A DNA stretch of 57,053 nucleotides from a virus (lineage: Duplodnaviria > Caudoviricetes), in IMG/VR virus record IMGVR_UViG_3300015206_000001, positions 1 through 57,053 of that record, one strand, 5' to 3'. Each line of letters starts with the position of its first letter. Within the stretch, counting starts at the first letter, position 1. Below are positions 1,384 to 49,006 of the stretch, piece by piece. Under the pieces are notes generated by a model. The model worked only from the letters and a program-made list of their open reading frames with translations. It did no database searches and was not told the origin of the DNA. Made by a program: the position numbers and the translations under genes.

Positions 1384-1544
1384 GACATCCGCCACGATAT
1401 GAGCTTGTAGACGTCCAGGATCATCACAATCCCAAAGAACTCGAGATAGAGAGCGAAGACGATCACGGGGATGAGAGGCAGAAGCGCGAGCAGCAGATAG
1501 CCGCCGCCGTGCGCATCGGCCAATTTTGTAAGCCTGTCGCTCAT
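1380..1544 (-). CDS. Small membrane protein (54 aa)
   Basis: Own translation MSDRLTKLADAHGGGYLLLALLPLIPVIVFALYLEFFGIVMILDVYKLISWRMS; fills the operon gap. Confidence 0.6.
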   Translation of the reverse strand: MSDRLTKLADAHGGGYLLLALLPLIPVIVFALYLEFFGIVMILDVYKLISWRMS

Positions 1545-46346: not shown

Positions 46347-46472
46347 TTAGCTGGCGCTTTCAGCCAGCCCGGCCTCCGGAATTGTGTTGTCGACGGCACG
46401 CGGGCGCCACCAAGGCAGCCACGCAATGTTAAGGGCGATCCACGAGAGCAAGATGATGCCGGCAATGGTCAT
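46347..46472 (-). CDS. Small membrane protein (41 aa)
   Basis: GAGG RBS; MTIAGIILLSWIALNIAWLPWW. Confidence 0.5.
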   Translation of the reverse strand: MTIAGIILLSWIALNIAWLPWWRPRAVDNTIPEAGLAESAS

Positions 46473-46642
46473 GGCAGCCTCACATGAGGCCAGGTGCGAA
46501 CCACCGCGGCGCCGACGATCAGCCAGAACACCCCGAAAGCGACGATCCCGGCCGGAAGCAGCAACGCCGGCGCATAGAACTGGTTGCGGCGGTCGATGAT
46601 CGCCTGGCGCTTTTCGGTGAAGTTGATGATCTGGGCGGTCAT
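46469..46642 (-). CDS. Small membrane protein (57 aa)
   Basis: Own translation MTAQIINFTEKRQ...LLLPAGIVAFGVFWLIVGAAVV; ATGA overlaps at both ends. Confidence 0.6.
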   Translation of the reverse strand: MTAQIINFTEKRQAIIDRRNQFYAPALLLPAGIVAFGVFWLIVGAAVVRTWPHVRLP

Positions 46643-47025
46643 GCACGGCTCCGAAAAGCTTGCGGTCCTTCAAGACCTCGTCTTTGATCGAGGAACTTCT
46701 TGAAGGAGGAACGAAGATGGTCATCGACGGACGAAGCGTCGGCGAACGGATGGCGATCAACCTGATGGGCGACGTCTTCAGCGCGCTGGCTGTCGATTTC
46801 GCTACCGTCGATCGCGAGGCCGCCTTGAAGGCGCTCGGTCGGATTGAGCTGTCGATCGCGGATGTTTTGACGGATTTCCGCCAGAAGACGTCCGAGGGGA
46901 TCGGAGAGTACGACGCCGCATTCGACGCCATGCTCGAGACGATAAGCGCGCTCGTTGAGAATGCTCGCGACGCGGTGCAGTCGCGCGGCAAGCCATCGAA
47001 ATAAACGAGCTAAGCGCAGCTTCAT
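46639..47025 (-). CDS. Hypothetical ORF antisense to 46717-47004
   Basis: GGAGG RBS; stop coupled (ATGA) to the next operon gene. Confidence 0.45.
   Translation of the reverse strand: MKLRLARLFRWLAARLHRVASILNERAYRLEHGVECGVVLSDPLGRLLAEIRQNIRDRQLNPTERLQGGLAIDGSEIDSQRAEDVAHQVDRHPFADASSVDDHLRSSFKKFLDQRRGLEGPQAFRSRA
46717..47004 (+). CDS. Hypothetical helical protein, counter-oriented (moron-like)
   Basis: AAGGAGG RBS; natural-looking amphipathic helices. Confidence 0.7.
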   Translation: MVIDGRSVGERMAINLMGDVFSALAVDFATVDREAALKALGRIELSIADVLTDFRQKTSEGIGEYDAAFDAMLETISALVENARDAVQSRGKPSK

Positions 47026-47045
47026 GCCGCCCTCCGCAAATTGAA

Positions 47046-47452
47046 TCGGGCGACGGCGGGGCATATAGCGCGATCACGCGCCCTTCCCGATCGAGCTGGC
47101 GTCGCTATGCGACCGAAGCCCGATGTATGTGACCCGGGCTGTTGGATGCCAAGGCCGCCGCCCGAACTAAATTCGGACGGCGGCAAAGCCAACGTCACCG
47201 AGGGCTCACTCTCTCCCGAGGGTAGAGAGCTGTATGCTCCGCCATCCGAAACTGAATTGAATTGGCTGACGACCACCGCGACCGGACGATCAGAGAAATT
47301 CGGGGCAGTGGTCGTATCCGCCGCCATTGCTGGCGCCAGCGCGGATTTGAAACTGGCGAGGCGCGCACTGAGTGCCGCGAGGGATTGGTCATCAGCACCG
47401 AAGTGCCTACGGCCTTTCCGGAGGGAGCCTTGCGAGCTGTACCTCGCGCCTC
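47046..47452 (-). ncRNA. Putative tandem structured RNA array
   Basis: Several long closing stems with G-U pairs valid only on the minus strand; internal hairpins including cUUCGg. Confidence 0.55.
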
Positions 47453-47463
47453 TGGGGTATTCG

Positions 47464-47724
47464 TTATGCTCGCTTGCGCGGACGTATCTCTTGCACGATG
47501 ACCATGACGGCATCGACGGAAGGCTCGCGCTTGCCGGAGAGCCAGAATTTTGCGGCCCGTTCGCTGACGTTGGCGCGATAAGCAAGCTCGGCTGCTGTCT
47601 TGCGAGGCCAGAGAGCGCGCGCCGCGATCGCAAAGCCATTCCGAAATTTTGGTGAACAGTTGGGAACATGTGTTCCCCGTTCGGAACTGGACGGAAGCGC
47701 CGTCCTCCCGCTTGATTCGCCCAT
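47464..47724 (-). CDS. HTH protein in the CII position
   Basis: KTAAELAYRANVSERAAKFWLSGKREP; downstream of cro. Confidence 0.7.
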   Translation of the reverse strand: MGESSGRTALPSSSERGTHVPNCSPKFRNGFAIAARALWPRKTAAELAYRANVSERAAKFWLSGKREPSVDAVMVIVQEIRPRKRA

Positions 47725-47965
47725 GAACACAACCCCCACAACGCAACACAACTCCGTGACGATCTCGATTGAGCTGAAATCCAAAATGCAGAACGCCGCG
47801 ATTTTCCTGCAAAATCGCAATGCAGCATCACTCGGCGTGCAAAGTTACTGGGTAACTGATTTAAATTGTAAGGGAACCGTTGTGATGTCATCATCTTACC
47901 CCACCAGCGCCACAAAACAGCTTGGGGTAGAAGACCATGGGGACGATTGTTCGCCTGCCGCAGCG

Positions 47966-48178
47966 TCATGCGCGCGCCTCGACTTTAAAGCCAAAAACAG
48001 AAGGCTCGGCCTGCTCGCCGATGGCGGCGAGAGCATCGCGAAAGAGCACGAACTTGCCGGCCGATATTTTCCCGCGGCTTTTCCAATTACTGACCGCCGG
48101 CAGCGAGACGCCGGCTAGGGCGGCCGCCGCCGACGGCCCACCAACGGCATCAATGACCGAATCAACTGTTCTAAGCAT
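47966..48178 (-). CDS. cro: Cro-like HTH repressor
   Basis: VIDAVGGPSAAAALAGVSLPAVSNWKSRGKI; divergent from cI. Confidence 0.85.
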   Translation of the reverse strand: MLRTVDSVIDAVGGPSAAAALAGVSLPAVSNWKSRGKISAGKFVLFRDALAAIGEQAEPSVFGFKVEARA

Positions 48179-48184
48179 GACTCC

Positions 48185-48213
48185 AGATAGTTCACAGAAC
48201 GTGAATGTGTCAA
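48185..48213 (-). promoter_or_regulatory. cro promoter with embedded operator
   Basis: TTGACA (48213-48208); palindrome TTCAC-N5-GTGAA (48191-48205) in the spacer. Confidence 0.7.
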
Positions 48214-48266
48214 GCGGTCACATAACGGCAATAGAATTTCGCCACCCCGTGAGGTTCAATCGGGGC

Positions 48267-48539
48267 ATGGCGGAAACCAACAAGTCATTGGCAGATAGGG
48301 TAAAATTGACGCGGGAGGCGCTGGAAATATCGGCGGCAGACCTGTGCAAAAGGCTAGATATCGACGCCAACCGCTGGTCTCAATACGAGAGCGGCAAGAG
48401 GCGAATCACCATGCCGGTTGCCAACAAGCTATGTGATGAATTTGACCTTTCACTGGACTGGATTTACCGCGCCAATCCTGCCCAGCTGCCGCACGCGCTC
48501 AGGCTGAAGATGCGTCAGGCTACGCCGAAAAAGGCTTAA
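48267..48539 (+). CDS. CI-like XRE HTH repressor (no peptidase domain)
   Basis: RVKLTRE..SAADLCKRL..WSQYESGKR..SLDWIY. Confidence 0.85.
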   Translation: MAETNKSLADRVKLTREALEISAADLCKRLDIDANRWSQYESGKRRITMPVANKLCDEFDLSLDWIYRANPAQLPHALRLKMRQATPKKA

Positions 48540-48547
48540 AATAAGCC

Positions 48548-49006
48548 GTGATCAAGAAGGTCATTCGTTCAATTTTTTTTATCGCCTGCGGGCTGATGAT
48601 TGTTGCTTATCTGCAGCACCCGACGAACCCGTCTTCCGTTGCAAACTCAGGTCCAGAAGCGCCCGGTAAGCCGTCAGCACCCCAGGTCGCTGCGGCACCA
48701 GAGAAAGTCTCGGAAACCCCGCTGCTCGGTAACGTTGTATTGAGCAAGATCAGCCTCCAGAAGCAGGACGTAACGTTCAGCGCGTCCTTCACCATTGAAA
48801 ACAAGAATCCCTTCGCAATCAAAGACGTTCAGGTTACGTGTCATCATTTCGCGAATAGCGGTACAGAGATCGACCAGAATACCAGGACGGTATTCGAGAT
48901 CGTACCAGCCAATGGCTCGAAACGTATTGCCAGCTTTAGCATGGGATTCATCCATAGCCAGGCAACGAAATCGGCCTGCGCGGCGGTCGCCGCCAAACCA
49001 GCCTAA
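48548..49006 (+). CDS. Membrane-anchored periplasmic protein (immunity-region moron)
   Basis: N-terminal TM, Pro-rich linker, Ig-like beta domain with two Cys. Confidence 0.75.
   Translation: MIKKVIRSIFFIACGLMIVAYLQHPTNPSSVANSGPEAPGKPSAPQVAAAPEKVSETPLLGNVVLSKISLQKQDVTFSASFTIENKNPFAIKDVQVTCHHFANSGTEIDQNTRTVFEIVPANGSKRIASFSMGFIHSQATKSACAAVAAKPA

Follow-up and report, generated by a model that had tools for sequence, protein, structure and literature searches.

A tandem array of structured RNA units inside a stop-free frame in the early operon of a temperate soil phage

The tRNA cluster of phage T4 holds, in line with its tRNA genes, two stable RNAs of unknown function (species 1 and 2, rnaC/rnaD; ~100-140 nt), which have no promoter or terminator of their own and are thought to be cut out by the tRNA-processing machinery. 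By analogy, this cluster with its two stable RNAs would be the closest known arrangement to the locus described here, a tandem array of five RNA units (A-E) on the minus strand, occupying the 440 nt that follow the second small helix-turn-helix (HTH) gene in the early rightward operon of a soil phage. The phage, of the Bradyrhizobium-type temperate kind, is represented by the complete virus record IMGVR_UViG_3300015206_000001 of IMG/VR (positions 1 to 57,053; 57,053 bp, 61% G+C, most genes on the minus strand); this whole stretch is called the window below, and related loci carry L numbers. As in T4, non-tRNA structured RNAs stand in line with tRNA genes, here in the relatives. Unlike the T4 cluster, the array of the window consists of five non-tRNA units and no tRNA, several families are shuffled as cassettes among temperate phages, and the array lies in an immunity-proximal early operon, inside a stop-free reading frame.

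GOLLD and ROOL, both Rfam families, are large RNAs of 500-800 nt often found near tRNA genes in prophages. Like the present units they are structured RNAs that phages carry in association with tRNA genes and whose function is unknown, but they are far larger, and no Rfam family besides tRNA matched the window or 20 related loci. The put RNAs of HK022, two stem-loops present once on each arm, are likewise, together with the lambda nut sites, structured RNA of a temperate phage just past the early promoters and cro that acts on its own transcript; here, in contrast to put, E occurs once, and the units can replace one another and stand among tRNA genes. RNase III processing hairpins, known between the T7 early genes and in the lambda N leader, share with the array irregular long helices with internal loops, placed between early genes and directly upstream of a Shine-Dalgarno (SD) sequence, and the outer part of E (stems P1 and P2 with the internal loop between them) makes a ~17-bp helix in just such a position; unlike these hairpins, E and D contain three-way junctions, that of E being conserved and that of D of another kind. 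Rickettsia palindromic elements are inserted in frame in open reading frames (ORFs) and are, like the units of the array, structured mobile modules that leave the frame unbroken, but they interrupt real proteins, whereas the frame described here has no protein-like signal and consists almost wholly of RNA modules and tRNA genes. Similar in being small phage RNAs near the immunity region are the C4/CI-type immunity RNAs and isrK; however, a search of positions 46600-47900 with 4227 Rfam families gave no match at E<=10, C4, isrK and tRNA included, and the membership in these families raised by the first-pass annotation falls away. Among literature titles and abstract openings, nothing was found on this element or on a frame kept free of stops across RNA genes. 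We take the stop-free frame and the cassette behaviour as novel variations on the theme of a “phage tRNA cluster”.

We read the array as a mosaic of co-transcribed, processed structured-RNA cassettes of four or more families (A, B/C, D and E) within a bridging frame that is translated, and hold this reading with about even confidence. To the few phage non-coding RNAs the array adds one new, well-supported structured family at the least (E) and probably three others (A, B/C and D). These families sit at the heart of the lysis-lysogeny control region, where they behave as exchangeable cassettes beside tRNA genes, and they offer a route to a long-open question, the role of the non-tRNA stable RNAs in phage tRNA clusters.

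Folding of the array and the conserved unit E

All stems that the first-pass annotation had drawn for units A, D and E are present (inverted repeats I3, I5, I7 and I8). Unit A is closed by 8 perfect bp between GAGGCGCG (47452-47445) and CGCGCCUC (47365-47358), unit D by 12 bp, one of them U-G, between UUCGGAUGGCGG (47250-47239) and CCGCCGUCCGAA (47183-47172), and unit E by 11 bp with one G-U between UCGGGCGGCGG (47165-47155) and CCGUCGCCCGA (47056-47046), followed by a second stem, GGCAU (47150-47146) with AUGCC (47064-47060). Folded over 461 nt, the minus strand reaches -213.7 kcal/mol compared with -187.4 +/- 6.5 in dinucleotide shuffles (z -4.02, 0/100 as good), while the plus strand gives z -2.29 with 1/100 shuffles as good; folding of the minus strand is thus above that of shuffled sequence. 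GC by codon position is flat over about 47140-47440. Folding, covariation and covariance models together uphold the description of structured, strand-specific minus-strand RNA units in tandem with AAUU-type linkers. They also agree with the earlier statement that no unit is a canonical tRNA, as ARAGORN found 0 tRNA or tmRNA and Rfam 15, at the gathering score, 0 matches in the whole window.

Comparison among phages argues strongly that E is a new RNA family. Its parts, all on the minus strand, are as follows.

47046..47166, minus strand: unit E, a conserved RNA of ~125 nt, defined by alignment, covariation and a covariance model
47155-47166 with 47046-47057, minus strand: stem P1 of E, 12 bp
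47146-47150 with 47060-47064, minus strand: stem P2 of E, 5 bp, with an internal loop between P1 and P2
47135-47138 with 47086-47089, minus strand: stem P2b of E, 4 bp
47117-47124 with 47090-47097, minus strand: stem P3 of E, variable, tipped by the hairpin 47101-47113
47077-47082 with 47067-47072, minus strand: stem P4 of E, 6 bp, with a tetraloop

The fold thus runs from P1 through the internal loop and P2 to a three-way junction, whose arms are P2b carrying P3, and P4. Copies were collected with an exact 23-mer from E, which led to 6 viral contigs, and with a 19-base junction pattern, which led to 12 genome loci and 18 viral loci. Three chance matches in unrelated sequence (L014, L016, L019), one copy cut by a contig end (L023) and three duplicate viral loci (L026, identical to L015; L037, to L027; L042, to L021) were left out, and the alignment holds 23 sequences plus the window, 24 in all. 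Other searches gave nothing: blastn of 46600-47900 found no match among 50,697 phage records, an exact 22-mer from the E 3' arm had 0 matches in the genome contigs, and an exploratory pattern had 0 matches in the window.

Across the 33 pairs of the model (792 pair cells), 99.4% of cells are standard pairs, and 10 pairs show changes on both sides, i.e., compensatory substitutions. On each of the five measures used, 0 of 500 column shuffles equal the alignment, sliding the 3' partners by 1-3 columns lowers pairing to only 34-42%, and the independently derived RNAalifold consensus coincides with the hand-drawn structure, so that the covariation expected of a real RNA is found. The same data revise one detail of the cloverleaf-like fold proposed earlier: hairpins 47101-47113 and 47068-47081 fit the conserved structure, but 47117-47140 is contradicted, covariation instead pairing CCCG (47138-47135) with CGGG (47089-47086) and AUCGGGCU (47124-47117) with AGCUCGAU (47097-47090). 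By a tally of pair types, 85 of the 792 pair cells are G-U; alignment pair 77-103 is G-U in 24/24 sequences and pair 115-130 in 23/24, and these near-invariant G-U pairs indicate that the RNA is read from the minus strand of the window. Long stretches at the junction are invariant.

With the covariance model the minus strand of the window scores 138.7 bits (E 1.5e-34, full length 1-131) versus 15.7 for the plus strand, a match that is partly so by construction, since the window belonged to the seed alignment; members outside the seed score 126.9 bits (L045) and 96.7 bits (L046). The copy in L046 lacks P3 wholly, and P3 therefore appears dispensable. E was found in 4 of 151 genomes, one copy per genome, two of these being further members (family of the genome behind L015). 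Two comparisons delimit the shared stretch: the region common to the window and 5 of the first 6 viral loci is only about 47021-47173, and L004, a locus reached through the neighbouring plus-strand ORF, is alignable only to 47171, the 5' edge of E. A candidate pseudoknot between GGUCA and the P4 loop was rejected, the loops UGAA, UCAA and UCAG of L013, L022 and L035 being non-complementary to it. Full or truncated E copies also occur in metagenome-assembled genomes (MAGs) assigned far from Bradyrhizobium, to Candidatus Cybelea (L018) and to Acidobacteriota (L023), which could reflect a binning error or a wider phage host range.

Exchangeable modules, tRNA genes and linkers

The four units upstream of E are, on the minus strand:

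47357..47462, minus strand: unit A, a multi-branched RNA module, closing stem 47445-47452 with 47358-47365
47316..47346, minus strand: unit B, stem AUCCGC/GCGGAU around the hairpin CGCCA-GCAA-UGGCG
47269..47315, minus strand: unit C, an 11-bp stem (47305-47315 with 47269-47279), a 25-nt loop, then CAGCCAAUUC
47172..47250, minus strand: unit D, a three-way-junction RNA, P1 of 12 bp plus two hairpins

Unit A recurs as a 93% identical module in L015/L026 and is present also in L055 and L056. RNAalifold on four sequences predicts 32 pairs, 4 of them compensatory. The closing stem is as first described, but the local GCAC-UUCG-GUGC hairpin drawn inside it competes with a long-range pairing that RNAalifold prefers; because neither set of competing pairs varies, the alignment leaves both folds possible. 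Units B and C travel as one module, 87% identical in L009/L034. In L034 the hairpin of B reads UGCCA-GAAA-UGGCA, a double change that keeps the pair and the GNRA loop, in a comparison of 2 sequences; the stem of C is inverted repeat I7 and part of the minimum-free-energy (MFE) fold. The hairpins of unit D are CUCUCU/AGAGAG and GAGCC/GGCUU, the latter with the loop YUCGGUGACGYU. Modules 81-87% identical to D stand in L040, L032 and L038, and in this set of four sequences 98.3% of cells are paired and 3 pairs are compensatory. A D-specific pattern found 4 more members at loci without E, whose P1 arms are very different yet complementary. A, B/C and D are probably new RNA families too, on thinner data than E. 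A distant paralogy between D and E was considered and rejected: among 77 matches at E<=10, the E model has none on the minus strand over 47172-47250.

The matches to A, B+C and D each lie in a different neighbourhood, and when the 520-nt stretches preceding E in 26 loci are all compared with one another, the arrays resolve into mosaics of 80-110-nt blocks, with modules swapped among relatives at conserved linkers. Units A, B/C, D and E thus look like separate exchangeable modules, each present in other phages in other combinations. That stems and linkers act as DNA, serving as recombination boundaries, single-strand initiation sites or protein-binding inverted repeats, would fit this exchange at conserved linkers and the semi-conserved ends of P1 (UUCG...CGAA in both D and E). 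It is nevertheless highly improbable: the invariant G-U pairs and the tolerance of G-C to G-U changes on one strand only speak for RNA, covariation extends to the internal P3 and P4, far from the module ends, and real tRNA genes are among the array members. As a separate observation, a short motif, GUGACAGC.GGAGAGAC.GCAACCAAUUC, occurs upstream of E in L036 (three copies), L039 and L046; its small hairpin has a GAGAGA loop and precedes ..ACCA and a linker, and the motif may be another cassette type or a protein-binding hairpin.

The tRNA genes bear directly on what the units may be. Nine of 25 related loci carry one canonical tRNA within the array, on the strand of E (ARAGORN: 8 Met-CAT, 1 Asn-GTT), so that a same-strand tRNA in line with the units, as for the stable RNAs of a tRNA cluster, is present in these nine and not in the window itself. 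Rfam, run on 20 related loci, returned 9 tRNA matches of 57-66 bits and nothing else above noise. Their placement is intimate: in L020 the CCA of the tRNA ends one base before the first base of E, in L021 and L031 the tRNA is directly upstream of E, in L032 and L040 it precedes D, and in L025 tRNA-Asn directly follows E, separating it from the next gene. Units and tRNAs share the short linkers (..CCA-AAUUC-AG..) that join them. A simple consensus scan, covering sigma-70-type promoter sites, found 0 sigma-70-like promoters in 46400-48600; a scan of the same simple kind found two terminator-like sites there, both outside the array, and none inside it (47005-47463).

The suggestion that the units are processed small RNAs gains from these loci, since the arrays of relatives contain genuine tRNA genes on the same strand and with the same linkers. 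It is because of the tRNAs, the shared linkers and the lack of promoter- or terminator-like sites in the array in these scans that we read it as a non-tRNA counterpart of a phage tRNA cluster. Under this reading the units would be transcribed within the cro-side early transcript, and host tRNA-processing nucleases cutting in the short CCA/AAUUC-type linkers would release stable RNAs of ~80-125 nt.

The same position invites another explanation, in which the units, or E alone, are processive antitermination RNAs (put/EAR-like) that let early transcription reach the delayed-early genes. The array does lie in the early operon, past a cro-like gene, a complex conserved fold could conceivably act in cis, and no N-like gene was recognised beside the array by Pfam or PHROG. 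Yet put-type elements, which the first-pass annotation had also envisaged, are expected as paired copies (putL and putR), and the covariance model finds no second E in the 57-kb window (next best 16.8 bits) and nothing alike on the leftward side. In 46400-48600 the consensus scan gave no terminator within the array or downstream of it, and interchangeable units mixed with tRNA genes are unneeded for an element that modifies RNA polymerase. We regard antitermination as improbable.

The stop-free bridging frame and its downstream junction

The whole array is contained in a long minus-strand reading frame, which ends at the translation signals of the next gene.

47022..47969, minus strand: bridging frame of 315 codons; its ATG stands after GAGG plus 7 nt and its TGA overlaps the next ATG
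47022..47036, minus strand: junction, with SD GGAGG (47035-47031), AUG (47025-47023) and the bridging-frame UGA (47024-47022)

In the window this frame crosses the small HTH gene, which is read in another frame, and units A-E; in relatives it crosses tRNA genes as well. Its ATG overlaps the TGA of the cro-like gene (ATGA at 47969-47966), and the order GAGG, 7 nt, AUGA at its start is kept in many loci. The corresponding frame, reading GGC-AUC-CAx in E, is open over 114-628 codons in 26/26 loci, and its stop overlaps an ATG or GTG (as ATGA, GTGA, TGATG or TAATG) in 23 of the 26. Over 20 long ORFs (7,670 codons) the other five frames contain 202, 223, 238, 186 and 160 stops, ~2.6% per codon; at this rate, by our own arithmetic, a 320-codon frame would be open by chance ~2 times in 10,000. 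Of 6 loci that lack E and were reached through D or A, 5 show the stop-free frame as well. Both remaining frames of each module contain stops, and modules must therefore be joined in phase. Length differences in E are mostly multiples of three (window +3, L027 -3, L046 -30, L028 +27; exceptions L033 -4 and L041 +1), and in 20 of 21 proximal loci the start codon lies 17, 20, 23, 26 or 32 nt from the end of P1; the remaining locus, L041, has a one-base insertion in P1.

Gene callers have called this frame as a protein 37 times. The 37 database “hypothetical proteins” (173-511 aa) match its last 91 residues, and 29 of them contain the E-peptide, most often 43 residues from the C-terminus; such labels hide the RNAs. 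That the frame encodes a real protein, perhaps disordered and arginine-rich, with the RNA structures as secondary features of its mRNA, would account for its openness in every locus, for the SD and AUG and for the ATGA couplings at both ends. The sequence, though, has the long open frame and the start signal of a coding region and neither its codon bias nor a family match. GC at the three codon positions is flat (0.57/0.61/0.59 in the window, and likewise flat in the 20 long ORFs), and non-consensus letters in E fall on positions 1/2/3 as 162/150/148, with no third-position excess. Compensatory base changes alter residues radically, as judged by eye in L015, where GGGCGG to GGACGA turns GG into DD; and the frame crosses canonical tRNA genes. 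The bridging frame has no Pfam or PHROG family match, and the 37 database entries are all unnamed or “hypothetical”, without a Pfam domain and in singleton clusters. A real protein is therefore a poor candidate, to which we assign little probability. Translation of the region, which the first-pass annotation had set against an RNA role, accordingly has two sides: a stop-free frame with SD and AUG does span the array, but amino acids appear unconstrained where RNA pairs are constrained.

We conclude that selection acts on the openness of the bridging frame and not on its product. As the frame is kept stop-free, with an SD/AUG overlap at its start and a start-overlapping stop at its end, the simplest cause is most likely that ribosomes traverse the array. 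On the cassette reading they would pass from the cro-like gene straight through the cassettes to the next gene, a transit that would keep translation coupled between the two and the transcript covered against Rho or nucleases, while the bridging peptide itself would be irrelevant. If ribosomes truly traverse the array, this would be a new way to keep a long non-coding stretch expressed within a bacterial operon. A further-reaching proposal, which we offer tentatively, is a “translated RNA-cassette operon”: selection would keep the frame open through tRNAs and RNAs, ATGA overlaps would hand ribosomes over at each end, and ribosome transit would compete with cassette folding and nuclease processing. 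Such transit would either decide whether the transcript serves as mRNA for the delayed-early genes or gives rise to small RNAs, or take the place of an N- or put-type antiterminator by shielding the transcript from Rho-dependent termination.

Several points weigh against the reading as processed cassettes inside a translated frame. We infer the transcription, processing and stability of the units alike, and the promoter scan was limited to sigma-70-type consensus sites. Translation across tRNA genes and very stable helices is unusual, and we know of no precedent. It is also odd for a translated ORF that the bridging frame covers the whole of an HTH gene that looks real and is read in another frame. 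Many of the sequences are kin and share modules, so that locus counts are not counts of independent events. Finally, the long invariant junction stretches of E would also fit a ligand- or protein-binding cis element, and the unit next to the SD is usually E, a placement not called for if the units are purely “independent cassettes”.

The last two points lead to the junction. A ribosome-binding site just downstream of E, as noted before, is indeed there, in the form of the SD GGAGG and the AUG listed above, and an SD plus start codon follow E by 17-32 nt in 21 loci, before unrelated genes. E might then be a cis translational switch, a riboswitch-like or protein-binding leader in which the SD-AUG is free when P1/P2 are formed and is otherwise occupied by the C-rich 3' strand of E paired with the G-rich SD region. 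The short, fixed spacing to a conserved (G)GAGGGCGGC-AUG is what such a leader would show, as are the invariant junction nucleotides, the covarying stems and the dispensable P3. The SD region resembles the E 5' arm and can pair with the E 3' arm: over 22 loci the mean unpaired probability of the SD and start is 0.51 with the whole of E, 0.34 with its 3' half only and 0.56 for the tail alone, and the alternative hairpin appears in the MFE fold of L013, L024, L035 and L038. Against this, the accessibility effect is modest and absent in several loci, and any C-rich strand is prone to pair with an SD. L055 and L049, both without E, have the same (G)GAGGGCGGC-AUGA junction immediately after unit A and unit D, respectively, and in five loci a tRNA (L025) or other structures (L021, L028, L031, L033) stand between E and the next gene. 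On balance a switch of this kind seems unlikely, though it deserves more credit than antitermination or a protein.

A second switch had been proposed within the array, in which the 3' arm of D pairs with the 5' arm of E to the exclusion of both native stems. The pairing exists: the two arms form a 13-nt inverted repeat, 92% complementary (I3), and a hairpin in the MFE fold. In the window it is competitive, the D3':E5' conformer reaching -117.1 versus -112.7 kcal/mol for the two native folds, with the MFE of -118.4 kcal/mol belonging to a third conformer that places the D 3' arm on the SD region. It is, however, disfavoured in all three relatives in which D adjoins E, L040, L032 and L038, where the native folds win by 5.4, 3.4 and 10.2 kcal/mol, and most E copies are preceded by unrelated units. 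The hairpin was therefore rejected as a conserved switch; it is a local by-product of the similar P1 helices of D and E, whose likeness is what makes the two arms compete.

At the upstream end of the bridging frame, a ~60-nt conserved block (47900-47985, minus strand) covers both the last part of the cro-like gene and the first part of the frame. It reads GAGG-CCCGCGC-AUGA-CGC..CGGCAAGCGAACCACUGU.CCCAU and is also present in L013, L015, L024, L032, L034 and L038, with differing upstream sequences; it may represent no more than the start of the bridging frame with its SD, or be a nut-, put- or operator-like site in the classical post-cro position.

Neighbouring genes

The genes around the array are listed below.

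47937-48539, plus strand: CI-like HTH gene, a regulator near the array
47966..48178, minus strand: Cro/YdaS-like HTH gene, 70 aa, from the ORF list, Pfam and PHROG
47464..47700 (ORF 47464..47820), minus strand: small HTH (“cII-like”) gene, start uncertain, from the ORF list and GC pattern
46642..47025, minus strand: ORF of 128 codons with ATGA overlaps at both ends, from the ORF list and comparison with L004
46717..47004, plus strand: ORF of 95 aa with a GGAGG ribosome-binding site, convergent on the array, from relatives and codon changes

The Cro/YdaS-like gene matches Pfam YdaS_toxin (3.1e-6) and P22_Cro (8.5e-4), neither reaching the curated cut-off, as well as DNA-binding and repressor families of PHROG. 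The small HTH gene shows GC of ~0.68/0.45/0.70 by codon position in its own frame, which is one base ahead of the bridging frame; it has a weak HTH_3 match (0.022) and matches phrog_23106 at 9.8e-5. Proteins resembling its product precede the arrays of L017, L025 and L041. An inverted repeat, GGGAACA-CA-TGTTCCC (7+2+7; 47662-47677), lies in an AT-richer stretch upstream of this gene and is a candidate operator or protein-binding site.

Downstream of the array, two overlapping antisense ORFs are both kept in L004. The plus-strand member is more likely the real gene of the pair, as it has a GGAGG ribosome-binding site and four relatives, each of 95 aa and 66-72% identical, and as its codon changes relative to L004 are 20 synonymous to 27 non-synonymous (differences 19/11/26 by codon position), compared with 13 to 34 for the minus-strand ORF. 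The latter is probably an antisense shadow of the plus-strand gene, or may be another ribosome-traversed stretch, bounded by ATGA like the bridging frame. Locus searches with the 95-aa ORF returned 1 viral locus and 2 metagenome loci, one from the same phage and one cut before the array; in the genome contigs they returned none.

Two further observations concern the neighbourhoods of related arrays. A small protein of ~85-90 aa (M..LG...KD.ITGF.G..TG...Y..GC) is encoded upstream of the arrays in L022, L027, L032, L034, L036 and L031 and downstream of the array in L021, whose copy, the only one searched, was assigned no family. In L033, E (1417-1543, minus strand) precedes a 304-aa protein (L033:461-1372) with a weak “Mtd second domain” match (5.1e-5, just under the cut-off), after which comes a helical ORF that is Avd-like as judged by eye; this hints at a diversity-generating retroelement cassette directly after the array.

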